Source: Dictyostelium discoideum (Eukaryota). Taken from it: a stretch of 64,000 nt of DNA. Below the pieces are notes generated by a model that was not told the DNA's origin, ran no database searches, and saw nothing but the letters and a program-made list of their open reading frames with translations. The stretch's first letter is position 1; every line of letters starts with the position of its first letter. The stretch covers positions 5,312,001 to 5,376,000 of the forward strand of contig CM000153.2 of NCBI GenBank assembly GCA_000004695.1. The letters are read 5' to 3'. Position numbers and translations under genes: made by a program. Below, one piece after another: positions 4,432 to 48,316 of this stretch.

Positions 4432-4436
4432 ATCAC

Positions 4437-4582: not shown

Positions 4583-4639
4583 GAAATTTTATTTTTTGTT
4601 TTAATTATTATTTTATTTATTTTTATTATAATTATTGTT

Positions 4640-4672
<33 letters not shown>

Positions 4673-4813
4673 CAATTTTTTTTTTTTAAATTTTTTTCAA
4701 TTTTTATTTGTTTATTAAATTGTAATTTTATTTTTTGTTTTAATTATTATTTTATTTATTATTATTGTTAATTTTTTTTTTTTTTCAATTTTTTTTTTTT
4801 TAATTTATTTTTA

Positions 4814-6373
4814 TTAATTTATTTTTATTAACTCCCTGAGTTGTTCAATTGCTTGATTTACCATATCACTGTAAACACTGCACACAATTGAATTTTTTCT
4901 AGCTTTGTTACCTCTGGTGCATTTGATGTTTTTGCATTTTCCTTTGTATACAAAAAAGTCCAAATATAATTCGTTTTCTATTACAGTTTTTACACAATGT
5001 TGGTGAAATTGTTTTGATTTTAAGTGGAATGTTGGTAACATCATATTTGGATTTTTAACGATTAAAGCATCACCACTATTGACATATAGTACTTTGGGGG
5101 CTTTTTGGAGGAATTTAGTCAAATTTTCCTCTGAATCTAACTAATCTTCATTGCCATATTCAATGGATAAATTTTTTAAGAGTTGTATCGAATATATTAA
5201 TTAAGCGATCATTCTTTTTTTTTGAAATTTTTTTTTAATCAGATTTAGCAATTTTTTTTTTTTATCAAGTTTTTTCAATTTTTAATAAGTAATATTTTTT
5301 TTTATTTTTAATTATTTGTGTTAACAAATGTAATTTTTTTTTATTGATTTCAACACTTTGTTTTTATTTAATAATTTCCCCATACCCCCTTCTATTAATG
5401 CAACCAAATCAAGTTCTAATTTTTGTGTCCTTGTTGACTTTGTTTTTGCAACTTTTTTTGAAGGTATCACATTAACGATTTTTCCTATTGATGGTGATTT
5501 GGAAGGTGATTTAAATGGTGATTTAAATGGTGAATTGGAAGGTGATTTAAATGGTGAATTGGAAGGTGAAATGGATGGTGATTTGGAAGGTAATTTAAAT
5601 GGTGATTTGGAAGGTGATTTAAATGGTGATTTAAATGGTGAATTGGAAGGTGAAATGGATGTTGATTTGAGAGGTGATTTGGATGTTGATTTGAGAGGTG
5701 ATTTGGATGGTTTAGAATGTGATTTTAAAGGAGGTTTATTAACAATTGGTATCTTATGAGGACGGCCTCTGAGACGTTTAACAGTTGTTACTATACCACT
5801 ACCAGATTGTGGTATAGTATATGATGGTATTATTTGCACTTGAGGTATTGGTGGTACTATTTCTTTTAAATTCATATCCTTTCTCAAACAATTCATTAAA
5901 TTTGGCGCTGTTGGATTATTATTTAAAAATGGGAGTATTTCTTCTTGTTCCATTTCATTATTGAGTTTGTGTTGAAATGGATTATCGTTAATGATAGGTG
6001 GAATATTTGATGGATTGTTAAGAGCATCTTCCAAAACCCTAAATGGATCATTTTGTGTTACCAATTGATGCAAGTTGAAATTGGATAAATCCTTACCAAG
6101 ATTTTTAATAAACTGAACCAGAAATTCAATAACTTTCCCATCATTATTTAAATAAAGACCAGAAGTAAAAGAATCAATATCTTTTTGTATGTTTGGCGAT
6201 GTTCTAAAAATATCAACTGTTGATTGTTTATAAAGAACCAACTTGTTACCTCCTACAAAACCAGAGTATAAACCTTTTTTTTGAAGGCTATTGATTCCAT
6301 CTTCCAAAAATTCAAGTTTATAAAGTTGTTTAGTGTCTTCCTGTATTACCTTATGAATTTTACACAAAATCAA
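4814..6373 (-). CDS. Additional transposon-internal ORFs (350 aa with RGRP AT-hook and SPxK repeats; 102 aa Cys-rich)
   Basis: ORFs 5321..6373 and 4814..5122 lie on the same strand as the integrase fragments inside the TIR-bounded element; function unknown. Confidence 0.35.
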
Positions 6374-6443
6374 TATTTTCTATTAGAATTAAATATAAAA
6401 TTTGTTAATTATTACTGTTTCATATATTATTAATCTTTATGTT

Positions 6444-7287
6444 TTAATTACTTACATTATTTTTTTTAATTTCTAGAAAGAGTACAGTATCACCAACTTT
6501 CAATCCCTTTGGTGGTTTTGAATTCCATTGATTTTGGTAACTTGTGAGATTTTCAAGAATAATAGCTGTTATTTCTTCTTTTGAAACATCTGAAACACCA
6601 ATTGATTGAGAGTCTTGTTCTGATTGCACATTAATAAACAAAGGTACAATACCAACAGCTTGAGATGGTGTCATTTTAATTGTTCTTGTTTTTGTATTAT
6701 TGTAATCATACAAAGCTTGTTTTAATAGTTCAGAAAGAGACCTAGAAGTACCATCAAGAAAACTAAAATTTATTTATAAATGATTAATTAATAAACATAT
6801 CGATAATTTATATTGTTCAAAATATCATACTCTTGTTGTTTTAATTTTGAGATCCTCTCCTTGATAGTTCGATTCAATCTTTCTACCATACCTTGAGTTG
6901 TTGGTGTACGAGGAGCTCCATGTGCTGACTTGGAGCCTGGAAAAAGTTTTAGGAATTCTTTTTGGACTTTGTTTTTAAATTCACGTCCATTATCGCAGTG
7001 CCATACTTTCACAGAGTTTTAATATAAAAGTTACAAAACATCATATAAAAAATGATTGATACCAAACCTTTTATTCTATTTCGTTGGCAAATGTCACACG
7101 TATCTACTGCATCAGATACAAAAGAATACAATCCCATATTATAATATTTAGTCTTGTAGTTCCCATAGGTTGCATCTCTTCCTATATGACCTTTATGCAT
7201 TTCTTCCCAGAGTGATACCATTCTATAATCATTAATTACTTCTAAACACACTTCTTTTGATATATTTCTATCTCCGCCACAATTCAT
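6444..7287 (-). pseudogene. Transposon integrase-like ORF fragments (HHCC zinc finger, DDE core second Asp and Glu, C-terminal part) split over three frames
   Basis: 7287..7009 has HKGH...CDICQRN (HHCC). 7012..6788 has WHCDNGREF...HGAPRTPTTQGMVERLNRTIKE (second D and E of DD35E). No first catalytic Asp block is found between them, so the copy is probably deleted or degenerate. Confidence 0.7.
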
Positions 7288-7651
7288 GACTTTTTTTTCA
7301 ATTCTAAATAATTTTTCTTTTCTGTTTCTGTTTTTTATTGGTCAGAATTTAAAAAATGATTGTGTTATGGTAAGGAAAAATATTTACTCATCATGTAAAA
7401 ATTTATAATTTTTATGTTTAGTATTTTCAAAATTATTATCTTCAATAAATTTTAAATAATTTATCTTGTTTCATTTTGGGAAAATGAAAATAAAAAAAAA
7501 AAAAAAAAAAAAAAAAGTTTTGTTGGGGAAAAAAAAAAAAAATTTTGGCGCAAAAAAAAAAAAAAAAAATAAAATAAAAAAAAAAAAAAATAAAATAAAA
7601 AAAAAAAAATAAAAAAACTTAAATAGAACTAATAATCAAATAAAAGATAAT

Positions 7652-7797
7652 AATTTAATAAACTTTATTTGTTTTTTGAAAAAAAAAAAAATTTAGGGTC
7701 AGTGATTTTTTTTTTTCACTACGCTACTGTAGTGAAATTAAATAATAAAATTCACTACGCTACTGTAGTGAAATTTTATTGAAAATTCCCTACAACA
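7652..7797. repeat. Right terminal inverted repeat of the transposon
   Basis: Reverse complement of 4437..4582. Confidence 0.9.
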
Positions 7798-10700
7798 ATC
7801 ACCACCTGCAATATATTTATATTCAGTTTTATCATTTGGATCATTTTTTGTTGTTGTTGTTGTTTTTGCTGTTATTGGTAATAATTTTTCATCCATTTCT
7901 TTTTTCTTTTTATCTAATGAATCATTTATAATTTGATAAACCATACCAATTGAATTTGATTGAATTTGTTGAATTGTAATAAGATGTGGAGACCATTCTT
8001 TATCGACCCAATTCTTTAATTGTACTGTAATTAATGAATCAGCACCATAGTTTATCATTTTAATATTTGTATTAATTTTTGATGGATCAATTGAAAGAAG
8101 TTCAGAAACTTTGTTTAAAAATTTATTTTTTACATTTGTTGATGATGATGATTGATTGGTATCATTTTCCATTGATATTGAATTATCAACATTAATTGGA
8201 TTTAAAATGAAATCAAATTTTTGATGAAGTTTTTGTTTAAAACTTTTGAATAATGGCCAATTGAAATTATTAACAAATGCATTGGTTGGCATATTTGGAT
8301 TTTGAATTTGTAAATCTAAAGTACCCAATAATTGATTTGGTGATATTAATTCAACACCTTGACCACCTAGTACTGCTTCAACAAGTTTATGTCTTGAAAG
8401 ATAACCTCTATCACTTACACCACCAATGTTAATTGTAAATGATGGTAATCCAATTGATTTACGATATTGTGATAACGAATCCACTACACAACATGCTGAA
8501 ACATAACTACATTGATCAAATGAACCTAATACTGAAACTACTGATGATGCTAAAATGAAATTAATAATTTTCCAATCTCTTTTAATTGATAAATTATGTA
8601 AATTAACTGCACCAAACGTTTTTGCACTATGCGAAACATTTAAACTATTCATATCAATATCTTTAAGTTTTTTATTAATTTGTAAAGCTGCAAAATGAAA
8701 TATTGAATCAATATTTGTAATTGTTGGATTATCTTTTAAAACTTGATCAATTGTTTTATTAATTAAATTCCAATTACTAATATCACATTTTTTGAAATGA
8801 TATTTAATTTTATTGTTATTATTATTATTATTATTGTTGTTGTTATAATTCATTAAAAATTCTAATTCCCATTTTAATGATGATTTTGAAAGAATAATTA
8901 TATTTTCAACAGTTGAATTATATTTTGTTATCCATTTTAAAACTTCTAAAATTAAACCAGTTTGACCTGTAACCAATACATTTTTACCAAGATTTTTAAT
9001 TTTATAATCTGATTTTAATATTGAATAATCAATCATTGATTCTTTTTCAATTAATTTATCTATGATATCAGTATCATGTGAAATTACAATTTTACCAACA
9101 TGTTTTCTTTCTTTAATTGATTCAATTGATTTTTTAATATTTGAATTTGAAAATTCTGTAATTGGTATTAAAGCATTTAAAGTTTCATTTTCAATTGATT
9201 TTGAAATTGACTGTAATAATTTCTTAATTGTTGATTTTCCAACTTTTAAAATTTCAATACTATTATAACCAATATTATATCTATATCTACTATTATCAAT
9301 AAATTCATTTGGATTTAAATGAGTAGTTGTTAAATCTACAATTCTACCTTTTGGATTTAAACATTTAAAATTTGTATCCATAAATTCACTTGATAAAGTA
9401 TTAATAATTAAATCAACACCATGAGTTTCATAACCTAATTCAATTAATTTGTTTTTAATTTGTTTTTGATAATTTGTGTCTCTTGTTGAATAAATTCCAG
9501 TAATTAAATCACCATAGGTATTAATTAGATATTGTTTCTTTTCTTCTGATCCAACTGTAACAAATATTGGTGATGAATGATTATTTGATTTTAATATTTC
9601 CAATCCTGATAATCCAACACCACCAGATCCTGAATGAATTAATACTGATTCTTCATCTCTTAAATTACCAACATCATATAAACAATAAAGTGATGTTGAA
9701 TAAACTGCTGGAATTGAAGCTGCTTGAACATGTGTAATCTTTGATGGTTTATGACATGCTAATAATGAATCAATAATAATATGAGATGATGATGTTTCAT
9801 ATGCAATACCATAAACTTGATCACCAACTTTAAATTCTTTAGATGATTTAATTCCAACACGACTTACTACACCAGAAAAATCAAAACCAATACCAGCTTC
9901 ATTTACTTTTATCATTTCATTATATTTCAAATAATCTTTATAATTTATACCAGTTGCTTTAACTTTTACTTCAATTTCATATGGTTCTAAATCAATTTGT
10001 TTTGAATTTAATTGATATTCAAAATGTTCATCTAATTTTGAAACTAATTGATCTTGTTGTTTTGATAAATCATGATATGATTCAGATTTATAAGAATTCT
10101 TTAAATTTTTTAATTCTTTTTTATACATTTCAAAATAAACAGTACCACTATTTTTTATATAAAATTCTCTTTGAATATTATTTTTTGGATTAATTAAATA
10201 ATCAATGGTTTTGAATAAATCCAAATCATTTGTTAATGAATCTTTATCAAAATCCAATGTAAATAATTGTAAAGTTGGAATTTCATCAAAGTATCTTGCT
10301 GCACCTAAAACTGATGATGATAAATAATTACTTGATTGTGAATCACATGTAATTAAAACATGAGTACATTTTGATTTTAATTCATATAATTTTTGATTAA
10401 TTTGAACATATTCAAATGTTACTGATTTAAAGTTTTCCAATGTTAATTGTTCAATTGATTTAATAAAATAAATGATTGAATTATTTGTAATTGTTGTTGA
10501 TAATTTGTAAAATTCTTCAATTGTTGATACTTTTATTATTTTACAATTATTATAATGATTTTCAAATTTATTAATTAATTGTTGTTGTTGGAGTTGTTCA
10601 TCTTGATAACAATATAAAATTACTTGATCAAATGTGTTTATTGTTTTTGGTTGTAATTTTAATGATGGTTTTTGAGCTTGAATAATAATTGATTTAATAT

Positions 10701-10803
10701 CACTATCAGATATACTTGAAGATTTAATCATTATATCAGAATTGAAATTACAATTAACCAATAAGTTTTTCAATGATTCTTTATTATTTTCATTATTTAA
10801 TAG

Positions 10804-10868
<65 letters not shown>

Positions 10869-13800
10869 CATTTATTATTAAATAACCATTTGGTGTTAAA
10901 ATTTGATAAATTTGATTTAATGAATATTCAATATCTTTTGTTAAATTTGAAATATTTGAAACAATAATTAAATCATAATATGATGGATTTAATTTTTGTT
11001 TTTCTAATAATGAATTATCAACATCTAAACCTAATGAACGATAAAGAATACTTAAATAACCCTTATCTACTTTTGATAATTCTAATTTAGCATCTTTTAA
11101 AATTGATGAATTATTATCACTCCATGTATATTCAATATCAATTTCATAATGTGGATTTTCTTCGAGTAATGAATTGATTTCATTCAATAATAAAGTTGAT
11201 TTTGATAAATTATTACCACCAAATTCTAAAATTCTAAATTCCATCTTTCTATTAATTAATGGTTTAATAGTTTCTATAACAACATTTGGAATTAATAAAC
11301 CATCATCTACTTGATTATTTTGATAAATTGATTTAAATTCTAATGGTGATTGAATTTGTGAATCTTTTGATTGAAGATATGGTGTATAAATAAAATCAGA
11401 TGGAGTTTCAATTAATAATGGATCTTTAACTGGTGTTAATGATTTAACTACCAAGTTATCAACTTCAATGATAACAGTACCATCTTCTAACATAACAACG
11501 ATAGATGAAGAGAGTAAATCATCAGATGGAGATGATTTTAAAGTTGAATAAATAAAGATACTTGAATGTTCATCTCTATTTTTTGGAATATTTGAAGCAT
11601 AATATCTTAAACCTTCAACTTTATCTGTTACAATTTTACAATTCTTTTGAATGTATAGAATAACGGTACCATGGAAACAAGCATCAATGAGTGGACAATT
11701 GAAAAATGATTGTTCATCATGAAAGTTTTCAGGTAATTCTAAGGATATTTCAGTTAATGAACAATTATCACCAATATAACATTCAACTACTTTACTAAAA
11801 ATACCATAAAAGTTTGCACCCAATTGAGTTTTCATTAGTGAATAAAATTCATCCCATGGAATTGATGATAAATTACATTTTGTTTGTTTAATATCTTGAA
11901 TATCCAATTTTTGTTTTTCTTCATGATAATTATCATTACTATTTAAGTGGAAATTAGAATTTGAAGTATTTATCCATTGATTATTCATTTCATCTTTTAA
12001 ATGAAATTGTGCTCTATATTCACTTTTACCAGTTTGATAAACATTTGTTTGTAAACATTGCCCAATACCATCGGTTAATACAAATGGTACCTTAAATTCA
12101 ATTGAATTAATTGTTAAATCTTGATTTGGATATAATTTAAATATATTATCAATATAACCTGTTCCTGGGAAATAACATTTATCAGATACATTATGACCTT
12201 TTAAATATTTGAATGCATCTTTTCCAGTATCAATTATTGTTTGATATGATTTAATAAATGGATTTGAATCTTGCATTGAATTACCGAGAATTGAAATTGG
12301 TGGTCCAATTAAATTATTTTTATGTTCAATTGATTTATTTAACCAATAATGTTGATCATCCCATTGATATAATGGTAAATTAAAATTACTAATAGCCTCA
12401 ATATTGCTATTTATATTATTAAATTGACATTTAAAATTAATATCATAAGCATCATCACAAAATAATTGTGAAATTGATTTTTGAAATTCTTCAACATCAT
12501 TCTTTTTCTTGTGAAGTGTTGAATAAACTGATATTGATTCACCATTTCTAAAGTATTGTGATTGTTTTGGAATCATTTGTTTTAAATAAAATGATAATGT
12601 TGGATGTGGTGCAATTTCAATGAATACAATATTTGAACCGATTTGATTATCTTCAATATGTTTATATAAATTTGAAATTGTTTGAGTGAATGAAACTGGT
12701 TTTGAAATATTATCAAAGAAATATTCAGAATCAAAAATAGTTGATTCATTAAATAAATTTGATGTAACTGTTGAAAATGTTGGAATAACAGGTTGACTTG
12801 ATTGAATATTTAAATTTAAAATATCATCTTTAATTATATTTTGACTACTTGTATGAAAACTTGATAAACTTCCTAACATTGCTGAGAATATTTCTTTTTC
12901 TTTTAATTCTTTTGAAATTTCATTTAAAATTTGTTCATTACCTGCGATTACAATTGATGATGGTGAATTATAACATGCAATTTCAATAGTTGGGTAACGT
13001 GACATATAGTTAGTTTTATATTCATCTGAACTAATGTTAATTGATAACATTTTACCTGACCCATTTGTTCTTATTTGTAATGTTGATCTATGATAAATTA
13101 AATAACATAATTGGTCAATATCAATCATACCTGAACAATAAGCAGTTGTTACTTCACCAAGACTATGACCCAACATAAATGATGCTTTTATACCCCAATG
13201 TTTATAAAGTTCATATAATGATACTTGAATAATTACAGTTGATGGTTGTGCCATTGTTTGTTCATGAACTGAACATTTATCACTATCTTGAATTGCTCTT
13301 AATTTCTCTAAAATTGAATATCCAAAATAATTTTTCATTTTATTATCTAGCATATCCATCGAATTTCTAAATACTTTTTCATTTTTATATAATTCTAATG
13401 CCATTGTATTATATTGTGATCCTTGACCACAAAATACAAATACAGTTATTGGATTATTATTTTTATTTGTAATTGTAATATTTGAAGAAGTACTACTTGA
13501 AGTTTGATATTTAACTTGATTTTCAACATTATTAAAATCATTCCAATCTTTTGCAACAATTACTGATCTTTGATAAAGTGATGTTGATTTATTATAAATT
13601 TGATTTTTAACAAATTCTTCAAAACTATATTGTGATTCATATTCTTTATTTTCAATAATTAATGATTGATATTTTTTTAATGATTCAACTGAATTTGCTG
13701 AAAATGGAATTAAATAATTATTTATTTTTATATTATTATGATTATGATTATGATTATGATTATTATTATGATTATTTATATTATTATTTATAGTATTATA

Positions 13801-14489
13801 ATTAAATTGAGATAATACTAAACAACAATTTGAACCAGTTGCACCAAAATTATTAACAACCATTGAAGTATTTTTAAATTTATTAAATGGAATTGGTTCA
13901 GTTACAACTTTTAAATTCCATTCTTTAAATTTAATTGCTGGATTTGGTGTTTTAAAATGAATATTTGGTGCAAAACATTTGTTTTTATACATTAAACAAC
14001 ATTTGATTAATGAAGCAATACCAGAAGCAGCTTCACAATGACCAATATTTGATTTAAATGATCCAATTAATAATGGAGTATCAGTTGAACGAGTATCTTT
14101 AAAAACTTTTGAAATACCTTCAACTTCAATTGGATCACCAGTTGGTGTACCAGTGCCATGTGCTTCAACATAATCTATATCAGATGGTTTAACAGTTCCA
14201 TTGGTTGATTGAATTGCATTTTTTAAATTTTCAGATTGTGAAATTGATGATGGTGAATAGAAATTTGATTTATCAGAATAACCAATACCATCAACATTTG
14301 CACTTGCACCATTTATTGTACAATAAATTCTATTACCATCTTTAATTGCATCTTTTAAATTCTTTAAAACCACAACACCAATACATTCACTTCTTACATA
14401 ACCATCAGCTGATGCATCAAATGATTTACATCTACCATTTGATTTACTTAATATATTCAATGAAGAATATGCTTTAAAAAAGTAAGAGT
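7738..14489 (-). CDS. Type I iterative polyketide synthase, exon 2 (KS C-part, AT, DH, ER, KR, ACP); the reading frame now runs into the transposon TIR and stops at 7738
   Basis: Motifs GHSLGE (AT), HNVSDKCYFPG (DH), HSGSGGVG (ER), [10 protein letters not shown] (KR) and YGADSL (ACP). (CAA)26 poly-Gln tract at 10803..10867. The last 23 codons (DCCREFSIKFHYSSVVNFII*) are encoded by transposon TIR sequence. Confidence 0.85.
10803..10867 (-). repeat. (CAA)n microsatellite encoding a 26-Gln tract inside the minus-strand PKS
   Basis: (TTG)21 on the plus strand; the paralogous position in the plus-strand PKS reads NEQQPNNENNENNE. Confidence 0.9.
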
Positions 14490-14566
14490 CTAATAAAATT
14501 AAAAAATTTAATTAATAAATAAATATAAAGATAAAATTAAAAAAACTATTAAAAAAAAATACATAC

Positions 14567-15230
14567 CAAGTAATATATTAACACCACCAACAATTGACAT
14601 TTTTGATTTTTTATTTTTGATTGAATCATATCCTAATGCGATTGCATTTAAAGATGATGAACATGCAGTATCTAGAGTTATTGAATTACCATGAAGATCA
14701 TAACAATAGGAGATTCTATTTGAAATCGCATGATTTAAACTTGAGAATACATTTGATTTTACTTCATTTTTATTGATATTATGATAGTCACTTTCGGTAC
14801 AACCAATGAAAACCGAAGTATCTGTACCTTTGATTGAAATTGGATCAATTAATGAATCTTCTAATGCTTCCCATGTACATTTTAATAATAATCTTTGAAT
14901 TGGGTCAATGGTTGGTGCTTCATTTGGATTAATACCAAAAAAGAGTGGATCAAATGATTTAACTTCATCCAATGGTAATAGTCCTGAATAATTATTTGCA
15001 ATTTCATGATTTTTGAAAAAGTTATCATTGAATCTTTCTGATGTTTTCACTACACCATCGAAACCATTTATTAAATTATTCCATAATGTTTGAGGTGTAT
15101 TGTTTCTTTCATTTTCAATACTTCCACTTGGTAATCTAAAGCCAACACCAACAATTGCAACTAAATTTTCTTCAACATGTTTATCATCAACTTGTAAAAT
15201 TTCTGCTTTATTTATTTTATTTTGTTTCAT
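14567..15230 (-). CDS. Same PKS, exon 1 (KS N-terminus; ATG = complement of 15228..15230). Intron 14490..14566 (77 nt, GTATGT..AG, phase 1)
   Basis: [12 protein letters not shown]...[13 protein letters not shown]...[35 protein letters not shown] then GTATGT donor. Exon 2 resumes D-SYFFKAYSSLNILSKSNGRCKSFD, parallel to the plus-strand paralog. Confidence 0.75.
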
Positions 15231-15639
15231 TATTTTTTATAAATAAATTATTAATTAATTTTTATTTTAATTGAGTGAAGGCTTTTTAAATAATATAAAA
15301 TAAAATAAAATAAAAAGAAAAGCTACTATTTAATTTTAAAACCAAATACTCTTTTATTTTTATTTTTTTTTTTATTTTTTTTTTTTATAATAATATAGTA
15401 TAGTAATAATACAAACCTTGATCTTATCATAATTAATAATGATAACAAAAAAAAAAATTTTATAAAGATTGGAGATAATGGTTATTAATATTAATAGTTA
15501 AATAAAAAACACTATAAAAGGATCCTTTATTTTTTTAGATAATATGGTTGTGGGGTCGTAAAAAAAAAAAAAAAAAAATAAATTAATGAAAAATAAAAAA
15601 AAATAAAAATTAAGTATTTTTTCTATAACAATTTAATAA

Positions 15640-15702
<63 letters not shown>

Positions 15703-15780
15703 TGATTAATAGTTAAAATTACCTAAATTTAGATATCAATTACCTGTTAAATTATAAAATTCCTCGAACATCCATTATTT

Positions 15781-15837
<57 letters not shown>

Positions 15838-16049
15838 TTCCTATAAATATCTCATTATTTTTTTTTTTGATTAATAAATTGATTATATTTTAGTAATGTT
15901 TAAAATTTTAAATATTTTTTTTAAAAAAAAAAAAAAAAAAAAACAAAAATTATTCATCTTTTATTTAACAAATTTAAACATTTTAAATATTTTTTTAAAA
16001 AAAAAAAAAATTAATTTTTTTTGGATGGATTTAAAAAAAAATTTTAAAT

Positions 16050-16886
16050 TTAAAAATATTTTTTTTTTATTCTTAATAATGGAGTATTATTATTAATATT
16101 AATAATTCCATCAGTACCATTTTCATAAGAAATTTTAAAAATTCCATTTGTATAGTAATAGAAACCTTCGTCGAATTTTAAAAAAAATACAAGACCAGTT
16201 AATATATTTGAAAATTCTACGAAATAATTTGCAGAATATTTCAATTGACCAACTGAAATTGGATTTAAATTAAAAGAGAAAACATTTACAAAATCATTTA
16301 AAGAATTTGTTTTTTCTTGATATATTAAAACACCATTTTCAGTTTCACTTTCAATGATTCTATATATTTTTGTATTATTTGTTAATTTTGGAGATTGACC
16401 AATTTCATTGCCAATTTCAATTGGAAAATAACAAGATAGAAAAGTGAAACAAGCATCAACCAAGTATTTTTTATTCTTAAATTCCATTACATTGCAATAA
16501 TGAAGTCCGATATTTGGGTATACCAAATTCTCTCCACCGTCAATTGCTTTAATTAATTGAACTTTTATTCCAAATTCTTGTAATAACATACCAAATAATA
16601 TATTATGGTTTAAACAAATATTGCCAACCTCTTTCTCTATCATTGTTTCAACAATATAATCCATATCGATTGTTGGTCCATCTTTTAAAACGTCAATATT
16701 ATTATATGGAAAATGTTCTGCAAATTTCACCATTAACAATTCAAAATCATCCAAACAATTTAATTGAAAATCAATTTCTAAATTTAATTTTGGTAATATA
16801 ATTTCTTTAAAATTATATTTTTTATTTGCTAATTTTAATTCTTCATAACTGAAATGTAAAAAATAGTCTTTGTCATTAATTTCCAT
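16050..16886 (-). CDS. Arylamine N-acetyltransferase (NAT)-fold protein, 278 aa, in the spacer between the divergent PKS genes
   Basis: Catalytic-triad geometry matches NATs: Cys91 in VGNICLNHNILFG (cf. RGGYCFExN), His128 in GLHYCNV, Asp143 in YLVDACF (cf. YIVDAGFG). Cys-to-His spacing is 37 and His-to-Asp is 15, as in human and bacterial NATs. Confidence 0.65.
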   Translation of the reverse strand: MEINDKDYFLHFSYEELKLANKKYNFKEIILPKLNLEIDFQLNCLDDFELLMVKFAEHFPYNNIDVLKDGPTIDMDYIVETMIEKEVGNICLNHNILFGMLLQEFGIKVQLIKAIDGGENLVYPNIGLHYCNVMEFKNKKYLVDACFTFLSCYFPIEIGNEIGQSPKLTNNTKIYRIIESETENGVLIYQEKTNSLNDFVNVFSFNLNPISVGQLKYSANYFVEFSNILTGLVFFLKFDEGFYYYTNGIFKISYENGTDGIININNNTPLLRIKKKYF

Positions 16887-16896
16887 TTTTTTTATT

Positions 16897-16932
<36 letters not shown>

Positions 16933-17079
16933 CAAAGTATTGTTTATTTTAAATGAAATTATAATTAAATATAAAAATTAGAGGAATTAAATATATTTTA
17001 AGGGTATAATTTAATTTTTTAAAAATTAATTTATAAAAATTAATAATTTTTATAATAATACCCAAAATTATCTGTTGAT

Positions 17080-17121
<42 letters not shown>

Positions 17122-17407
17122 AACGAAAATCCCAAATTATTTATAAAAATGGTGTGTCATTGTTCGTGGATTCAGGACCCAAAAAATAAAATAATAAAAA
17201 AACAATTCAAGTTCCCATTGAGGAACTTGTTCTTAAATGGGTAATTTTTGAGAAAACTTTATTATTTTTATCAGATAATAGATATAATTTATCTTTTAAT
17301 TACTTTAATACCATTAAATTATTAATAATTTAAAAAAATAATATTATTTATTATTTCCTACACAATTTTAAAAATTAAAAAAACAATTATAAAAAAAAAA
17401 TTTTAAA

Positions 17408-17488
17408 AATAAAGAAGTGAGATTAATATTTTTCCACAACTTGGAATTCTAAAACCAATACAAATGTGCATTATCTCACTTCTTTATT
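17408..17488. repeat. 16-bp perfect inverted repeat (AATAAAGAAGTGAGAT ... ATCTCACTTCTTTATT) with 48-nt spacer
   Basis: Read directly; located in the divergent PKS intergenic region. Confidence 0.8.
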
Positions 17489-18550
17489 TTTAAAATTTTT
17501 TTTTTATATTTGCCATACCTTAATAATCTATTATTTTTTTTCATTTTCACAATTTTAATTAATTAAGCTATTTAATTTATCATTCATTTTTAAATTTTAA
17601 TTTTAATTAAACAAAATTTTTTTTTTTATTTTTAAAAATTTATTTTTGTTATTAGTATTTGTTTATAAATGATCTTTTTTTTTTAAAAAAATTAATTTAA
17701 ATCTTTGAATCTGTGTCTATTAATTTATTTTTATTTTTTTTTTTTTTTATAAAAAAAAAAAAATTTGATGTGCAAATCGGGTTAAAAAAAAAAAAAAAAA
17801 AAACAAATGGATTTGTTCTATCTAAATAGGGTTAATAGAAAAAAAATTTAGGTTTTCAAAAAAAAAAAGTTCTGTATTTGTTATTGTGGTAACTTTTTTT
17901 TTATAATTTTTCATTTTTTTTTTTTTTTCCATTCATTTACATTTTTAACACCACACCAAAAGTTTAAATATATACAAAGGTTTTTTTGAAATGTGGTGTA
18001 TTGTTGTGAGATTCAATGGTTAAGTGGATATTAAATTTTAATTTTAAAAAATTTTTAATAACCTAATAGTAATCAATAACTCAAATTTTAGAAAAAAAAA
18101 AGAAAAGTAGTATCAATAAAGTGGAAGAAAAAAAAAAAAAATTTTAAACCACCAATTTATAATTTCATATAAAAAATTATTAATGCTTAGTAAAAGAATA
18201 CAAAATTTTTTTGCTTCCCATTGAAACTTTCACTAGATAATCCAGTGATTTTTTTAACATGTAATCTAACACTTTAAAAGAGTAAAAATTATGTAAGCAA
18301 TACTATAAACACGTGATACAATTTATTTATTTATTATTAATAATAAGAAACAAACCACACCAAAATTTTTATTAATATAAGAAAAAACCACACCAAAATT
18401 TTTAAAGATAATATTAAAATATAATTTACTAATTTATATTAATATATTATTATTTTTTAAAAAAAAAAAAAAATAAAAATTGATTTAAAAACAAATTTTA
18501 TATATTTTTGATTTTATATATTTATCAAACCAATAAAACAATTTTTAATA

Positions 18551-19238
18551 ATGGATAATAGTTATTTAAATAATCCCCAATTTGATATTAATAATGGTAA
18601 TAAAGAAGTTACAGATGATGATAATAATAAAAATAATCAAGATAATTTAGTAGCAATTGTTGGTGTTGGTTTTAGATTACCAAGTGGTGAAAATGAAAGA
18701 AATAATACACCTCAAGCATTATGGAATAATTTAATAAATGGTTTCGATGGTGTAGTGAAAACATCGGAAAGATTCAATGATAACTTTTTCAAAAATCATG
18801 AAATAGCAAATAACTATTCAGGACTATTACCATTGGATGAAGTTAAATCATTTGATCCACTCTTTTTTGGTATTACTCCTAATGAAGCACAAACTATAGA
18901 TCCTCATCAAAGATTATTATTAAAATGTACATGGGAAGCATTAGAAGATTCATTAATTGATCCAATATCAATCAAAGGTACTGATACTTCTGTTTTCATT
19001 GGCTCTTCAACAAATGATTATCTTACATTAAATAGAAATGAAGTAAAATCAAATGTGTTTGGTAGTATGGCTCATTCAATTGCAAATAGAGTATCCTATT
19101 GTTATGATCTTCATGGTAATTCAATAACTCTAGATACTGCATGTTCATCATCTTTAAATGCAATCGCATTAGGATATGATTCAATCAAAAATAAAAAATC
19201 AAAAATGTCAATTGTTGGTGGTGTTAATATATTACTTG
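18551..19238 (+). CDS. Type I iterative PKS (plus strand), exon 1; intron 19239..19324 (GTATGT..AG, phase 1)
   Basis: [10 protein letters not shown]...[20 protein letters not shown]...GGVNILL then GTATGT donor; paralogous to minus-strand exon 1. Confidence 0.8.
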
Positions 19239-19324
19239 GTATGTATTATTTTTAAAATTTTTTATTATATTTTATTTTTTACAAAATTATTAATTAAAAT
19301 TATATTATTATTTTTTTTTAAAAG

Positions 19325-22300
19325 ACCCATATCCATATAAGGCATTCTCAATTTTGAATATGTTAAGTAAATCAAATGGTAGATGTAAATCATTTGATGC
19401 ATCAGCTGATGGATTTGTTAGAGGTGAATGTATTGGTGTTGTTATTTTAAAGAATTTAAAAGATGCAATTAAAGATGGTAATAGAATTTATTGTACAATA
19501 AATGGTGCAAGTGCAAATGTTGATGGTATTGGTTATTCTGATAAATCAAATTTCTATTCACCATCATCAATTTCACAATCTGAAAATTTAAAAAATGCAA
19601 TTCAATCAACCAATGGAACTGTTAAACCATCTGATATAGATTATGTTGAAGCACATGGCACTGGTACACCAAATGGTGATCCTGTAGAAACCGAAGGTAT
19701 ATCAAAAGTTTTTAAAGATACTCGTTCAACTGATACTCCATTATTAATTGGATCATTTAAATCAAATATTGGTCATTGTGAAGCTGCTTCTGGTATTGCT
19801 TCATTAATCAAATGTTGTTTAATGTATAAAAATAAATGTTTTGCACCAAATATTCATTTTAAAACACCAAATCCAGCAATTAAATTTAAAGAATGGAATT
19901 TAAAAGTTGTAACTGAACCAATTCCATTTAATGAAAATAAAAATACTTCAATGATTATTAATAACTTTGGTGTTACTGGTTCAAATTGTTGTTTAGTATT
20001 ATCTCAATTTAATAATACAAATAAACAAAAACAACAAATGAAAACAAAAATAAATAATTATTTAATTCCATTTTCAGCAAATTCAGTTGAATCATTAAAA
20101 AAATATCAATCATTAATTATAAATAGTAAAGAAAATGAATTAAAATATAGTTTTGAAGAATTTGTTAAAAACCAAGTATTTATTAAACCAACATCACTTT
20201 ATCAAAGATCTGTAATTGTTGCAAAAGATTGGAATGATTTTAATAATGTTGAAAATCAAGTTAAATATCAAACTTCAAGTAGTACTTCTTCAAATATTAC
20301 AATTACAAATAAAAATAATAATCCAATAACTGTATTTGTATTTTGTGGTCAAGGATCACAATATAATACAATGGCATTAGAATTATATAAAAATGAAAAA
20401 GTATTTAGAAATTCGATGGATATGCTAGATAATAAAATGAAAAATTATTTTGGATATTCAATTTTAGAGAAATTAAGAGCAATTCAAGATAGTGATAAAC
20501 GTTCAGTTCATGAACAAACAATGGCACAACCATCAACTGTAATTATTCAAGTATCATTATATGAACTTTATAAACATTGGGGTATAAAAGCATCATTTAT
20601 GTTGGGTCATAGTCTTGGTGAAGTAACAACTGCTTATTGTTCAGGTATGATTGATATTGACCAATTATGTTATTTAATTTATCATAGATCAACATTACAA
20701 ATAAGAACAAATGGGTTAGGTAAAATGTTATCAATTAACATTAGTTCAGATGAATATAAAACTAACTATATGTCACGTTATCCAACCATTGAAATTGCAT
20801 GTTATAATTCACCATCATCAATTGTAATCGCAGGTAATGAACAAATTTTAAATGAAATTTCAAAAGAATTAAAAGAAAAAGAAATTTTCTCAGCAATGTT
20901 AGGAAGTTTATCAAGTTTTCATACAAGTAGTCAAAATATAATTAAAGATGATATTTTAAATTTAAATATCCAATCAAGTCAACCTGTTATTCCAACATTT
21001 TCAACAGTTACATCAAATTTATTTAATGAATCAACTATTTTTGATTCTGAATATTTCTTTGATAATATTTCAAAACCAGTTTCATTCACTCAAACAATTT
21101 CAAATTTATATAAACATATTGAAGATAATCAAATCGGTTCAAATATTGTATTCATTGAAATTGCACCACATCCAACATTATCATTTTATTTAAAACAAAT
21201 GATTCCAAAACAATCACAATACTTTAGAAATGGTGAATCAATATCAGTTTATTCAACACTTCATAAGAAAAAGAATGATGTTGAAGAATTTCAAAAATCA
21301 ATTTCACAATTATTTTGTGATGATGCTTATGATATTAATTTTAAATGTCAATTTAATAATATAAATAGCAATATTGAGGCTATTAGTAATTTTAATTTAC
21401 CATTATATCAATGGGATGATCAACATTATTGGTTAAATAAATCAATTGAACATAAAAATAATTTAATTGGACCACCAATTTCAATTCTCGGTAATTCAAT
21501 GCAAGATTCAAATCCATTTATTAAATCATATCAAACAATAATTGATACTGGAAAAGATGCATTCAAATATTTAAAAGGTCATAATGTATCTGATAAATGT
21601 TATTTCCCAGGTGCAGGTTATATTGATAATCTTTTAAAATTATATCCAAATCAAGATTTAACAATTAATTCAATTGAATTTAAAACACCTTTAATATTAT
21701 CAGATGATAATGGTCAATTTTTACAAACAAATGTTTATCAAACTGGTAAAAGTGATTATAGAGCTCAATTTCATTTTAAAGATAATAGAACAAATGTATG
21801 GGTTCAAACATGTACTGCTAATTTTCAATTATATAATAATGGTAAAGTTGATAAATTAAATTTAGAAGAAATTAAATCAACAAAATGTAATTTATCATCA
21901 ATACCATGGGATAAATTTTATCCACATATAAAAAATAGAACTGGTTTAAACTATAAAGACAAATTTCAAAATACAATTGAATGCTATCTTGGTGATAATT
22001 GTTCATTAACTGAAATATCATTAGAATTACCAGAAAACTTTCATGATCAAGAATCATTTTTTAATACACCAATTTTAGATATTTGCTTCCATGGTTCAAT
22101 TGTTTTAATTAAGGATAATTGTAAACTTGTTTTGGATAAAATTGATGGTTTTAAATTATATACATCAAACATTCCAAAAAATAGATTTGATCATTTAAGT
22201 ATTTTTGTATATACAACTATGAAATCAACAAAATCAAATTCATACAATTCAACATACACAGTAATGTTAGAAGATGGTACTGTTATACTTGAAGTTGAAA

Positions 22301-25300
22301 ATTTAATATGTACATCATTAACACCAGTTAAAGATCCATTATTAATTGAAATTCCAACTGATATGTATTATACTCCATATCTTCAATCAAAAGATTCACA
22401 AATTCAATCACCATTAGAATTTAAATCAATTTATCAAAACAATCAAGATAATGATAGCTTATTAATTCCAAATGTTGTTTTAGAAACAATTAAACCATTA
22501 ATTAATGAGCAAATGGAATTTAGAATTTTAGAATTTGGTGGTAATAATTTATCAAATTCAACTTTATTATTGAATTCAATCAATTCATTACTTGAAGAAA
22601 ATCCACATTATGAAATTGATATTGAATATACATGGAGTGATAATAATTCATCAATTTTAAAAGATGCTAAATTAGAATTATCAAAAGTAGATAAAGGTTA
22701 TTTAAGTATTCTTTATCGTTCATTAGGTTTAGATGTTGATAATTCATTATTAGAAAAACAAAAATTAAATCCATCATATTATGATTTAATTATTGTTTCA
22801 AATATTTCAAATTTAACAAAAGATATTAAATATTCATTAAATCAAATTTATCAAATTTTAACACCAAATGGTAATTTAATAATAAATGAACAACAACCAA
22901 ACAATGAAAATAATGAAAATAATGAAGATTCATTGAAAAACTTATTGGTTAATTGTAATTTCAATTCTGATATAATGATGAAATCTTCAAGTGTATCTGA
23001 TAGTGATATTAAATCAATTATTATTCAAGCTCAAAAACCATCATTAAAATTACAACCAAAAACAATAAACACTTTTGATCAAGTCATTTTATATTGTAAT
23101 CAAGATGAACAATTCCAACAACAACAACAATTAATTAATAAATTTGAAAGTCATTATAATAATAATTGTAAAATAATAAAAGTATCAACAATTGAAGAAT
23201 TTTATAAATTATCAACAACAATTACAAATAATTCAATCATTTATTTTATAAAATCAATTGAACAATTAACATTGGAAAACTTTAAATCAATAACATTTGA
23301 ATATGTTCAAATTAATCAAAAATTATATGAATTTAAATCAAAATGTACTCACGTTTTAATTACATATGATTCTCAATCAAGTAATTATTTATCATCATCA
23401 ATTTTAGGTGCAGCAAGATACTTTGATGAAATTCCAACTTTACAATTATTTACATTTGATTTTGATAAAGATTCATTAATTAATTTAGACATTTCGGTTA
23501 TAGATCATTTGATAGATCCAAAACAAAATACATTGATTGAATTCTTTATTAAAAAAAATGGTAAAGTTTATTTTGAAAGATTTAAAAAAGGTTTAAAGAA
23601 AAATTCTTTTAAATCAGAATCATATCATCAAATTACAAATGAACAAGAAATTTTAATTTCAAAATTAGATGAAAATTTAGATTATCAATTAAAATCAAAA
23701 GATTCAATTTTAAAACCATATGATATTGAAGTAGAAATTAAAGCAACTGGTTTAAATTATAAAGATTATTTAGTATATAGTGGTTTAATAAAATTAAAAG
23801 GTGATAGTGTTGATTTTGGTCTTGATTTTTCTGGTAGAGTTAGTCGTGTTGGAATTAAATCATCAAAAGAATTTAAAGTTGGTGATGAAGTTTATGGTAT
23901 TGGACAATCAACATCATCATCTCATATTATTATTGATTCAATGCATGCATGTCATAAACCATCAAAGATTACACATGTTCAAGCAGCTTCAATTCCAGCA
24001 GTTTATGCAACTTCAATTCATTCTTTATATAATATTGGTAATTTAAGAGAAGGAGAATCAATTTTAATTCATTCAGGATCTGGTGGTGTTGGATTATCAG
24101 CATTGGAAATATTAAAATCAAATAATCATTCATCTCCAATATTTGTTACAGTTGGATCAGAAGAAAAGAAACAATATCTAATTAATACCTATGGTAATTT
24201 AATCACTGGAATTTATTCAACAAGAGATACAAATTATCAAAAACAAATTAAAAACAAATTAATTGAATTAGGTTATGAAACTCATGGTGTTGATTTAATT
24301 ATTAATACTTTATCAAGTGAATTTATGGATAGCAATTTCAAATGTTTAAATCCAGAAGGTAGAATTGTAGATTTAACAATTACTCATTTAAATCCAAATG
24401 AATTTATTGATAATAATAAATTTAAATATAATTTTGGTTATCATAATATTGAATTATATTATTGTGAAAAGCCAACAATTAAGAAACTATTACAGTCAAT
24501 TTCAAAATCAATTGAAAATAATACATTAAATTATTTAATTCCAATTACAGAATTTTCAAATTCAAATATTAAAAAAGCAATTGAATACATTAATGAACGT
24601 AAACATGTTGGAAAAATTGTAATTTCTCATGATACAGATATTACTAATAAATTAATTGAAAATCAACCTAAAATTGATTACTCTTTATTGAAATCAAATT
24701 ATAAAATTAAAAATCTTGGTAAAAATGTATTGGTTACAGGTCAAACTGGTCTAATTTTAGATATTATAAATTGGATTATGAAATATAATTCAACTGTTGA
24801 AAATATAATTATTCTTTCAAAATCATCAATGAAATGGGAAATGGAATTTTTAATTAACAACAATAAGACAAAAATTAAATTCTATTATAAAAGATGTGAT
24901 ATTGGTGGTGATTCAGATTCAATTAATAAAACATTTGATAAATTGTTTACAGAAAATCCAACAATTACAAACATTGATTCAATATTCCATTTTGCAGTTG
25001 TACAAATTACAAGAAAAGTAAAAGATATTGATATGAAATCATTAAATATTTCACATGATGCAAAAACAATTGGTGCAATTAATTTACATAATCAATCAAT
25101 TAAAAGAGATTGGAAATTAAGTAATTTCATATTAGCATCTTCAATTCTTTCAAAAGTTGGTTCATTAGATCAATGTGGATATGTTTCAGCATGTTGTGTA
25201 CTTGACTCATTTTCAAAATATCGTTTATCTATTGGATTACCTGCATTATCAATTAATATTGGTGCTATGGGTGGAAGTGGAATGGTTGCAAGAAGTGAAC

Positions 25301-25779
25301 TTGTTGAAACTGTACTTAATGGTCAAGGTTATAATTTAACCTCAACAAACCAACTATTAGGTACAATTGATTTATTAATTCAAAATCCTGGTCAAGAATC
25401 AAATAATTTAATGGTTGGTAATTTTAATTTCCCAGTTTTTAATAATTTCAAACAAAAGATTCATCAAAAATTTGATTTTATTTTTAATGCTCTTGATTCA
25501 AACTCTGAAAATGGTGATGGTAGTAATATCAAAAATTCAACAAATATTAAAGATAAATTTTTAAACAAAGTATCAGAATTTCTTTCAATTGATTCATCTA
25601 AAATTAATAATGATATTAAATTAATGAATTATGGTGCTGATTCATTAATTACTGTTCAATTAAAGAATTGGGTTGATAAAGAATGGTCTCCAAATTTAAT
25701 TACAATTCATCAAATTCAATCAAATTCAATTGGTATGGTTTGTCAAATTATAAATGATAATTTTGAAAAAAAAAAATAA
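19325..25779 (+). CDS. Type I iterative PKS (plus strand), exon 2: KS-AT-DH-ER-KR-ACP, ending 26 residues after the ACP with no release domain (total 2380 aa)
   Basis: Same motif order as the minus-strand PKS. Ends ...LMNYGADSLITVQLKNWVDKEWSPNLITIHQIQSNSIGMVCQIINDNFEKKK*. Confidence 0.85.

Positions 25780-29790: not shown

Positions 29791-29861
<71 letters not shown>

Positions 29862-30876: not shown

Positions 30877-30934
<58 letters not shown>

Positions 30935-33932: not shown

Positions 33933-33986
<54 letters not shown>

Positions 33987-35673: not shown

Positions 35674-35719
<46 letters not shown>

Positions 35720-48251: not shown

Positions 48252-48316
<65 letters not shown>

Follow-up and report, generated by a model that had tools for sequence, protein, structure and literature searches.

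Interlocus gene conversion acts on young duplicates such as the primate red and green opsin genes and RHD/RHCE, in which islands of divergence are maintained by selection, and the theory of such islands under conversion is reportedly due to Innan and Teshima. In the ampliconic palindromes of the human Y chromosome, conversion runs from arm to arm and the arms are >99.9% identical over their whole length. For bacterial modular polyketide synthase (PKS) clusters, conversion has been invoked to homogenize KS and AT domains while other parts vary, and the same authors asked if Dictyostelium PKS clusters use this strategy (Jenke-Kodama et al. 2006, PMC1592344). The Dictyostelium discoideum genes pks24 and pks25 are known to be adjacent and to have a common promoter region, and are suspected of acting in one pathway; single knockouts and a double knockout have been made (PMC12625978). 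The literature that we searched makes no mention of gene conversion or concerted evolution in Dictyostelium PKS genes, or of a transposon in pks24.

The window, the whole 64,000-nucleotide stretch of DNA that we analyzed, is of the D. discoideum AX4 type and contains the two large, inverted sets of PKS open reading frames pointed out in an initial annotation (Table 1). Each set represents one gene with one phase 1 intron, and the two genes diverge head-to-head from a spacer of about 3.3 kb, as annotated (start codons 3,320 bp apart). The spliced pks24 model translates without stops and is 93% identical to the homologous protein P0005, while its frame in the window continues into a transposon and stops at 7738; the spliced pks25 protein is exactly that of DDB_G0287095 ("Probable polyketide synthase 25"). 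Pfam matches place KS-AT-DH-ER-KR-ACP in this order on one polypeptide in both proteins, as in type I PKSs, although the DH family matches (PF14765 and PF21089) are weak: neither reaches the curated cut-off in pks24, and in pks25 PF14765 alone does. A motif search located the KS cysteine and histidine, AT GHSxG, the DH histidine, ACP DSL and the glycine-rich nucleotide motifs of KR and ER, and on the basis of domain order and catalytic motifs we predict that both enzymes are reducing type I iterative PKSs. Both genes appear to be maintained, as judged from orthologue dN/dS (0.03-0.45) and the intact catalytic motifs. The spacer holds an arylamine N-acetyltransferase-family gene just upstream of pks24 and on the same strand, whose position and orientation are unchanged in loci L001-L007. 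The arrangement had been regarded as recombinogenic and the spacer as prone to inversion, but no inverted spacer was seen among the six genomes in which we looked for it.

Table 1. Features of the pks24/pks25 locus, in window coordinates; blocks are termed converted or escaping according to the gene conversion proposed in the text
Feature	Position	Strand	Description
pks24 open reading frames	7738-15230	-	one gene, one phase 1 intron
pks24 exon 1	14567..15230	-	start codon at 15230; read from sequence
pks24 intron	14490..14566	-	GTATGT...TAG, phase 1
pks24 exon 2 to transposon edge	7798..14489	-	KS C-half, AT, DH, DH-ER interdomain region, ER, KR, ACP (Pfam; junction mapping)
pks25 open reading frames	18551-25779	+	one gene, one phase 1 intron
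pks25 exon 1	18551..19238	+	
pks25 intron	19239..19324	+	phase 1
pks25 exon 2	19325..25779	+	protein ends after ACP, without reductase domain
Arylamine N-acetyltransferase-family gene	16050..16886	-	spacer; PF00797, E=2e-18
Smaller converted block	pks24 13870-14293 / pks25 19521-19944	- (pks24)	KS C-half
Converted block I	pks24 12169..13837 / pks25 19977-21606	- (pks24)	KS-AT linker, AT, DH to catalytic His motif
Youngest tract	pks24 12164..13563 / pks25 20212-21611	- (pks24)	1,400 bp, 7 differences
Escaping block no. 1	pks24 11391..12162 / pks25 21613-22366	- (pks24)	rest of DH
Converted block II	pks24 10300..11370 / pks25 22387-23412	- (pks24)	between DH and ER; degenerate methyltransferase-like motif and poly-Q run
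Escaping block no. 2	pks24 9885..10255 / pks25 23457-23821	- (pks24)	ER N-terminal part
Converted block III	pks24 9301..9646 / pks25 24060-24405	- (pks24)	ER nucleotide-binding part
Escaping block no. 3	pks24 7906..8944 / pks25 24762-25773	- (pks24)	KR and ACP
Tdd-4/Tdd-5-like (Ginger2/Tdd) DNA transposon	4437..7797	-	3,361 bp; between pks24 ACP and terminal reductase
Detached pks24 3' end, terminal reductase	3241..4431	-	NAD_binding_4 (PF07993) match; frame still open

The inverted similarity is not limited to the 2 x 3 kb of the initial annotation but spans the full genes (7900-15123 vs 18682-25779), giving 2 x ~7.2 kb at 89.5% nucleotide identity. Whether identity is uniform along the genes had been set beforehand as the test of conversion, and both sliding-window identity and dS proved strongly uneven: the longest identical run measures 347 nt, compared to a maximum of 145 in 5,000 permutations, and at synonymous sites alone 187 codons compared to a permutation maximum of 175. 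Along the two 7-kb arms, similarity is distributed as a mosaic of several blocks rather than as a homogenized 5' half followed by a diverged 3' half, with ~45% of the arm homogenized and three escaping blocks that are 74-82% identical. The landmark proposed for the 3' end of the near-identity, ...KYLKGHNVSDKCYFPG (pks24 aa 982-997), does mark a sharp boundary, with 0 differences in the 347 nt before it and ~25% difference from 12163 on. Within the 5' half, however, near-identity is confined to aa ~531-1010, exon 1 and early KS being 83-89% identical (dS 0.2-0.39) and the KS-AT linker 88%, and the 3' half contains two blocks at 96-99% identity, blocks II (1.07 kb) and III (0.35 kb). Low-complexity insertions, cited earlier as marks of 3' divergence, do not follow the split either, since the HNHNHN run lies in the 5' half (pks24 aa 466-473) and the poly-Q run (aa 1430-1450) within a homogenized block.

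Using five distinct genomes (the pks24 sequence being truncated in three of them, so that fewer taxa cover the last ~0.8-1.5 kb), we compared divergence between paralogues with that between orthologues. Paralogue dS is 0.03-0.08 in late KS, AT and DH start, the DH-ER region and mid-ER, and 0.32-0.47 in the rest of DH, early ER and KR-ACP, so that homogenization is present at silent sites and not in the protein alone; orthologue dS (AX4 vs D. citrinum) is roughly even along the gene at 0.28-0.52 in all blocks, and therefore neither mutation rate nor constraint accounts for the mosaic. In the quartet of AX4 and D. citrinum genes, 323 informative sites are concerted, 323 orthologous and 17 other, and they fall into 71 runs compared to at least 278 in 10,000 shuffles. 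The topology of neighbor-joining trees switches along the arm: separation by gene receives 100% bootstrap support in all three escaping blocks and 0% in blocks I-III, and in the converted blocks most, though not all, pairs of paralogues cluster by genome, at 92-100%. The introns are too AT-rich to be aligned and hence provide no neutral check, and GC content is not raised in the converted blocks, so the GC-biased signature common with conversion is absent.

Block I contains 135 concerted and 0 orthologous sites, its paralogue pairs group by genome at 93-100% bootstrap, and paralogue dS is 0.034-0.051 compared to 0.36 for orthologues; identity between the two copies within a genome (AX4, D. citrinum) is 98-99.7%, and between orthologues ~90%. 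Block II (83 concerted, 3 orthologous; dS 0.073 for paralogues vs 0.28-0.36 for orthologues) groups by genome at 92-100% bootstrap in three of four genomes, the AX4 pair reaching only 14%, and block III (17 concerted, 1 orthologous) does so at 96-100% for D. citrinum and D. cf. discoideum and at 28% for AX4. The escaping blocks all split into pks24 and pks25 at 100% bootstrap, with 8 concerted and 106 orthologous sites in no. 1 (~77% nucleotide identity in each genome compared), 1 and 51 in no. 2, and 7 and 80 in no. 3 when compared to D. citrinum (paralogue dS 0.32-0.46); against D. cf. discoideum, KR-ACP has 4 concerted and 198 orthologous sites, in a longer orthology segment (pks24 9351-7906).

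The youngest tract is private to the AX4 lineage, in which its two copies are 0.995 identical compared to 0.955-0.960 in the D. discoideum strains DdR and DdW, and the event is thus recent and polymorphic. Painting of diagnostic sites revealed that AX4 pks25 carries pks24-type alleles only inside this tract, where AX4 pks24 retains its own, and the donor test gave 41 vs 12-18 and 30 vs 3 sites. Exchange was non-reciprocal, from pks24 as donor to pks25 as recipient, with a minority of misfitting sites: 12-18 of ~55 are of the pks25 type, which implies older short patches or polymorphism among strains.

Grouping by genome in the converted blocks and by gene in the escaping ones argues for conversion that recurred in separate lineages, and we consider it very probable, on evidence that is comparative throughout, that pks24 and pks25 have undergone recurrent, lineage-specific and non-reciprocal interlocus gene conversion, or concerted evolution, within boundaries common between species. 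Recent conversion, as suggested initially, is strongly supported by dS, informative-site runs and topology switches; what has to be given up is the simple 5'/3' geometry and the idea of one event, as conversion appears to be recurrent and independent in several lineages. The alternative of a partial re-duplication adds nothing, because replacing a segment in place is gene conversion.

Could the mosaic have arisen otherwise? If, since one old duplication, purifying selection had been stronger on AT, late KS and the remaining similar blocks and constraint weaker elsewhere, conversion would be dispensable. The most similar blocks do include catalytic cores (AT, KS C-half) with orthologue dN/dS of 0.06-0.19, but the effect is seen at synonymous sites, orthologue dS is even along the gene, and constraint alone cannot make paralogues resemble each other more than their orthologues and cluster by genome; we regard this as extremely unlikely. 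It is also improbable, if slightly less so, that the diverged blocks came from elsewhere, with domain-sized parts of a third PKS gene replacing DH-C, ER-N and KR-ACP in one copy. Dictyostelium offers ~40 PKS genes as potential donors (PMC12625978), and paralogue amino acid identity in these blocks (57-65%) is little above that to other PKSs (45-54%); yet among the 124 Dictyostelium PKSs collected, pks24 and pks25 are mutually the closest non-orthologous relatives in each diverged block, their dS there (0.32-0.47) is far below saturation, and grouping by genome in the remaining blocks would be left unexplained. Hardest to credit is an assembly artefact, in which false near-identity would result from collapsing or cross-assembling the reads of two similar genes: the AX4 reference was assembled long ago from shotgun reads of a genome rich in AT and in repeats, and the 1.4-kb tract exceeds Sanger read length, but the independent chromosome-level assembly GCA_054883475.1 has an identical pks25 protein and, after transposon removal, an identical pks24 (8,624/8,624 nt), and four other assemblies share the block structure but differ in their tract states.

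Compared with both D. citrinum and D. cf. discoideum, block edges lie at alignment columns ~3200, ~3998, ~5140 and ~5755, and with strain DdR those at ~3200 and ~5140-5160 recur while block II starts later (~4195). Two reasons may underlie such fixed edges: the ~25% divergence of the escaping blocks may halt heteroduplex extension, or selection may remove conversions that erase functional differences between the enzymes. In the escaping blocks, dN/dS between the paralogues is 0.5-0.7, which is compatible with adaptive or relaxed divergence. Conversion could also be real and its edges purely mechanical, set by a homology threshold or mismatch-repair rejection at ~25% with no role for selection on enzyme function. 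The sharpness of the edges (no differences over 347 nt, then ~25%) and the recurrence of most of them at the same columns across lineages speak for this, and blocks once diverged would perpetuate themselves. Mechanics alone would, however, leave the initial escape unexplained while the flanks underwent conversion; moreover, the escaping blocks are substrate-handling parts (DH past the His motif, the GroES-like part of ER, KR and ACP) that evolve under purifying selection, with dN/dS of 0.03-0.30 in each line of orthologues, and the same dip at aa ~1100-1300 occurs in other neighboring Dictyostelium PKS pairs. We thus view purely mechanical edges as possible but rather unlikely.

The different C-termini noted initially are real but do not reflect ordinary divergence, because the reductase-coding tail of pks24 has been severed by the transposon. 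This element has TGTTG...CAACA termini, terminal inverted repeats of ~269 nt (4437-4705 / 7529-7797, 84% complementary) and a 5-bp target-site duplication, GTGAT, at 7798-7802 and 4432-4436, and locus L007 of an independent assembly has the empty site with a single GTGAT. Its integrase open reading frames are broken; Integrase_H2C2 matches above the curated cut-off (E=6e-9), and the rve_3 match, to frames in pieces, is weak (E=2e-4, 21.4 bits, below the 26.5-bit cut-off). Tdd-4/Tdd-5 transposons have a 5-bp target-site duplication, long terminal inverted repeats (260-297 bp), TG...CA ends and a Gypsy-integrase-like transposase with an H2C2 zinc finger and a DDE core, TDD-4 itself being 3,839 bp long (PMC2836005), and based on these published features we classify the 3,361-bp element as putatively Tdd-4/Tdd-5-like. 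The detached reductase was located by tblastn with P0005 aa 2402-2820, and removal of 4432-7797 in silico restores a 2,848-aa open reading frame, which matches the intact L007 gene with 100% identity over 8,624 nt. Ancestral pks24 carried the terminal reductase that the transposon cuts off in the window.

We propose that a reducing type I PKS was duplicated before the split of D. discoideum and D. citrinum, giving rise to the inverted paralogues, and that DNA repair then repeatedly templated one arm on the other by non-reciprocal, non-allelic conversion without crossover, the repair pathway being inferred. The same blocks (late KS, AT and DH start, the DH-ER region and mid-ER) would have been re-homogenized again and again, and the rest of DH, early ER and KR-ACP would never have been overwritten, retaining separate gene histories. 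The latest event in the AX4 lineage copied ~1.4 kb of pks24 into pks25, after which the Tdd-4-like transposon severed the pks24 reductase domain.

The mechanism is ordinary and known; pks24/pks25 is a new, well-resolved case with unusually clean, domain-sized pieces, and the conversion mosaic and the transposon are added here to the published description of the locus (PMC12625978). As in bacterial PKS clusters (PMC1592344), PKS domains are homogenized and other parts vary, but the partners are two separate iterative eukaryotic genes rather than modules of one assembly line, and dS anchored by orthologues and polymorphism among strains form part of the evidence. The locus resembles the Y palindromes in having inverted arms around a spacer, kept alike by intrachromosomal non-reciprocal exchange, and is partly palindrome-like in its working; we rejected a palindrome of that type, as the arms are not near-identical throughout (~45% homogenized, 89.5% identical overall, 74-82% in three blocks). 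With the opsin and RHD/RHCE genes it has in common tract homogenization, grouping by genome, recurrent lineage-specific events and short conversion-resistant regions that would keep the copies functionally distinct, whereas its units are domain-sized pieces of a 7-kb multidomain enzyme, encoded by inverted genes with a common promoter region in a haploid amoeba.

Two polyketide synthase (PKS) genes, pks24 and pks25, diverge head to head from a spacer that separates their start codons by 3,320 bp, in a window whose overall G+C content is ~20%. The 2,380-aa product of the spliced pks25 model matches DDB_G0287095, 'Probable polyketide synthase 25' of Dictyostelium discoideum AX4, at every residue, and we assigned the minus-strand gene as pks24 because its closest relatives are the genes adjoining pks25 in other Dictyostelium genomes. 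A Pfam search returned the domain order KS-AT-DH-ER-KR-ACP for both proteins, with two DH family matches that are weak and mostly under Pfam's curated cut-offs, and a motif search found the catalytic motifs of both intact at the sequence level. In all genomes checked, an arylamine N-acetyltransferase-family gene lies directly upstream of pks24; since some bacterial PKS pathways use homologues of this enzyme to release their product as an amide, the gene could be a member of the pks24/pks25 pathway. The two PKS genes were described in 2025 as a pair with a common promoter region, probably belonging to one pathway (PMC12625978). The sole match between the arms within the spacer and promoter sequence (101 nt, 72%, AT-rich) was treated as chance.

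Features of the pks24/pks25 locus in window positions; for converted (homogenised) blocks and for escaping blocks, which are kept different between the two genes, the last column gives the AX4/D. citrinum sites that group paralogues by genome (concerted) and those that group the same gene across genomes (orthologous)
Feature	Position	Strand	Content	Concerted : orthologous
pks25 exons	18551-19238, 19325-25779	+	spliced model	
pks24 exons	15230-14567, 14489 downward	-	spliced model	
Arylamine N-acetyltransferase-family gene (PF00797)	16050-16886	-	in the spacer/shared promoter region	
KS C-half (converted)	pks24 14293-13870	-	late KS	26 : 2
Block I (converted)	pks24 13837-12169 (pks25 19977-21606)	-	linker, AT, DH to His motif	135 : 0
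Escaping 1	pks24 12162-11391	-	rest of DH	8 : 106
Block II (converted)	pks24 11370-10300	-	between DH and ER	83 : 3
Escaping 2	pks24 10255-9885	-	ER N-part	1 : 51
Block III (converted)	pks24 9646-9301	-	ER nucleotide-binding part	17 : 1
Escaping 3	pks24 8944 to end	-	KR, ACP	7 : 80
Tdd-4/Tdd-5-like DNA transposon	4437-7797 (3,361 bp)		between ACP and terminal reductase of pks24	
Detached reductase-coding sequence of pks24	4431-3241	-	cut off from ACP by 3,361 bp	

The inverted similarity that the initial annotation placed in two arms of about 3 kb is real, but it extends over the whole genes (7900-15123 against 18682-25779), which are 89.5% identical at the nucleotide level and 83% at the protein level. 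Identity along the genes is indeed far from uniform, with 60-codon windows ranging from 100% with dS = 0 down to 71% with dS >0.8. A perfect match extends for up to 347 nt, compared to a maximum of 145 in 5,000 permutations of the differences, and when synonymous differences alone are counted, up to 187 consecutive codons are free of them, compared to a permutation maximum of 175. The landmark proposed as the 3' limit of homogenisation marks a sharp and true boundary: right after ...KYLKGHNVSDKCYFPG the genes pass from 0 differences in 347 nt to about 1 in 4. The accompanying division into a homogenised 5' half and a diverged 3' half did not hold up, as exon 1 and the early KS are just 83-89% identical and the KS-AT linker 88%, and two more blocks at 96-99% identity lie in the 3' half. 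The HNHNHN run assigned to the 3' half is located in the KS-AT linker, and the poly-Q run, taken as a mark of the diverged half, sits within one of the 96-99% identical 3'-half blocks, indicating that such length changes arise faster than conversion erases them. The poly-Q run (10870-10930 region, pks24 aa 1430-1450), the HN repeat (aa 466-473) and a poly-N run (aa 2104-2114) are present in pks24 only.

We aligned the same locus from four other genomes, those of the D. discoideum strains DdR and DdW, D. cf. discoideum and D. citrinum, with that of AX4, the reference strain of the window. The informative sites between AX4 and D. citrinum comprise 323 concerted, 323 orthologous and 17 that are neither, and they lie in 71 runs, compared to at least 278 in 10,000 shuffles. 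In block I, the paralogues are 98-99.7% identical within AX4 and within D. citrinum, and the orthologues of these two genomes only ~90%. Neighbour-joining of escaping blocks 1-3 separated all pks24 from all pks25 sequences with 100% bootstrap support, whereas in blocks I-III this by-gene split received 0% and most, though not all, paralogue pairs joined by genome at 92-100% (the AX4 pair reached 14% in block II and 28% in block III). Uneven constraint as the cause of the mosaic is ruled out by synonymous divergence: dS between AX4 and D. citrinum orthologues is 0.28-0.52 in every block, whereas the paralogues differ by a dS of 0.03-0.08 within converted and 0.32-0.47 within escaping blocks. 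From the block-wise sites, trees and dS we conclude that gene conversion has recurred after an old duplication, with independent events in the lineages of at least D. citrinum, D. cf. discoideum and AX4. The initial annotation thus named the right kind of process, but the shape that it proposed was too simple, a multi-block mosaic taking the place of the 5'/3' split. Import of the escaping blocks from a third PKS was rejected, pks24 and pks25 remaining mutual nearest non-orthologous relatives in each of these blocks among 124 collected Dictyostelium PKSs. Nor were the converted blocks found to be enriched in GC (0.205-0.278 vs 0.194-0.256 in escaping blocks), which leaves GC-biased conversion unsupported. 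The pks24 and pks25 introns, considered as a neutral check, proved AT-rich, of low complexity and unalignable.

The block edges fall at the same columns of the alignment (about 3200, 3998, 5140 and 5755) when AX4 is compared to D. citrinum and to D. cf. discoideum; against DdR, the edges at ~3200 and 5140-5160 recur and block II starts later, at ~4195. The escaping blocks are ~75-82% identical between paralogues in every genome. Orthologue dN/dS of 0.03-0.45 indicates purifying selection on both genes in all blocks, whereas paralogue dN/dS in the escaping blocks is 0.5-0.7, which means faster protein divergence just after duplication. The divergence of the escaping blocks may have been begun and kept by selection for different substrate handling, and conversion tracts would end at points where the two genes are too diverged for strands to exchange.

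The youngest tract (13563-12164 in pks24, 20212-21611 in pks25) differs between the AX4 paralogues at 7 of 1,400 positions, whereas the same stretch is 95.5-96.0% identical between paralogues in DdR and DdW, indicating that it is polymorphic within D. discoideum. Painting with diagnostic sites, those at which DdR and DdW both tell pks24 from pks25, showed AX4 pks24 to be pks24-type throughout and AX4 pks25 to be pks25-type except in this tract, where its alleles are pks24-type; the transfer was therefore non-reciprocal, from pks24 to pks25. Between 12 and 18 of the ~55 sites do not fit this donor direction, suggesting short patches of earlier date. If the arms crossed over, the N-acetyltransferase gene and the 5' end of pks24 would come to adjoin the pks25 3' end with its FNIP and His_Phos_1 neighbours. 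Such an inversion of the spacer, anticipated from the recombinogenic layout, was not found in any of six genomes, in each of which the reductase-bearing PKS has the N-acetyltransferase gene directly upstream and pks25 is followed by the FNIP and His_Phos_1 side, indicating that those exchanges which became fixed were non-crossover conversions.

Orthologues of pks24, 2,803-2,852 aa long, carry a terminal reductase (NAD_binding_4) domain at the C-terminus. In the window, the pks24 frame runs into an insert and reaches a stop at 7738, so that the predicted protein retains the ACP and lacks the reductase; this read-through model of 2,471 aa had no exact match in the protein collection searched. 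The insert ends in TGTTG...CAACA, has terminal inverted repeats of ~269 nt, is flanked by a 5-bp target duplication (GTGAT, at 4432-4436 and 7798-7802) and contains broken integrase-like ORFs. The termini, repeats and target duplication fit the Tdd-4/Tdd-5 elements of Dictyostelium, which are 3.8 kb long with 260-297-bp repeats and 5-bp duplications (PMC2836005), and we classify it as a Tdd-4/Tdd-5-like DNA transposon. Within it, 16 tandem copies of a 12-nt unit (5455-5742) encode a repetitive SPSKSPFK-like stretch, part of a 350-aa ORF (5321-6373) with no Pfam match. Taking out the element together with one GTGAT in silico gives back an open pks24 frame of 2,848 aa. An independent near-identical assembly, GCA_054883475.1, has an empty site with a single GTGAT and a pks24 identical at 8,624 of 8,624 positions, indicating a very recent insertion that is confined to the window's own lineage. 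Over the aligned 16206-7798, that assembly shows 18 mismatches, 0 of them inside pks24; they sit in the ~1-kb upstream stretch (15231-16206), which covers some of the spacer and some of the N-acetyltransferase gene. The element is also absent from D. cf. discoideum, and full-length proteins (2,803-2,852 aa) are encoded in D. citrinum and the remaining strains. The pks25 protein lacks the reductase in all species and probably lost it after duplication, as judged from more distant PKS relatives of ~2,780-2,860 aa that carry it.

Elsewhere in the window, a stand-alone 596-aa ORF (47561-49351, +) matches the KR domain weakly (PF08659, E=1e-6), and tblastn aligns it with the KR region of the PKSs at ~30% identity. 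Two very large ORFs on the plus strand (29430-34451 and 34878-38180) have no Pfam match and are annotated in other assemblies as one 3,333-3,484-aa gene downstream of the His_Phos_1 gene. A G+C spike at 58000-60000 (0.34 vs ~0.2) lies over the gene for the V-type ATPase catalytic subunit (58324-59895, -), which is followed by the phenylalanyl-tRNA synthetase alpha gene (62001-63464).

The two enzymes have an essentially identical loading and extension core and differ in their dehydratase, enoyl-reductase, ketoreductase and carrier regions as well as in how the chain is released, the reductase domain being on pks24 only. This narrows where a difference in chemistry would originate, and it agrees with the hint of one pathway (PMC12625978). 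Trees based on KS or AT, the usual practice, will mis-date the pks24/pks25 duplication and may mis-date other Dictyostelium PKS pairs. The reference sequence carries two private changes, the converted AT region of pks25 and the transposon that removes the pks24 reductase domain; since the transposon is missing from a near-identical strain, laboratory strains may differ in pks24 product release, which bears on the mapping of AX2 knockout and metabolomics data to the AX4 genome.

A quick protein-level comparison of eight other neighbouring PKS pairs, from D. discoideum, D. firmibasis, D. purpureum and D. dimigraforme, revealed similar block mosaics, with 100% blocks adjoining 59-68% blocks in P0019/P0021, P0020/P0025/P0031, P0036/P0040, P0097/P0098 and others (numbers denote collected Dictyostelium PKS proteins), and aa ~1100-1300, the later DH, was repeatedly the least similar region. 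At the protein level, these mosaics with their common dip hint at a wider rule. We regard it as a tentative and rather doubtful proposition that block-limited conversion is general in Dictyostelium PKS clusters, such that a chain-building scaffold (KS-C, AT, interdomain and ER cofactor part) would evolve in concert across adjacent genes, and selection would keep apart the pieces that handle the substrate (DH beyond the His motif, ER N-part, KR and ACP). If true, such a rule would amount to natural, continuing domain-level combinatorics and help explain the ~40 distinct PKSs in the genus.

Clustered, very similar PKS genes were reportedly noted by Zucko et al. in 2007; the literature that we searched, which did not cover that work, yielded no report of conversion among Dictyostelium PKS genes or of the transposon in pks24. 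Gene conversion has been proposed for KS and AT domains in the modular PKS clusters of bacteria, by authors who put the same question for Dictyostelium (PMC1592344), and on the question of whether the PKS clusters of eukaryotes, like those of bacteria, evolve by recombination, the locus offers a concrete answer that can be tested. The inverted layout resembles that of palindromes with arm-to-arm conversion, but the pks24/pks25 arms are far from uniformly identical and so are not of that type. At work here is ordinary interlocus gene conversion that leaves resistant islands, as in other young duplicates, and the locus is a clean multi-genome example of this known process.
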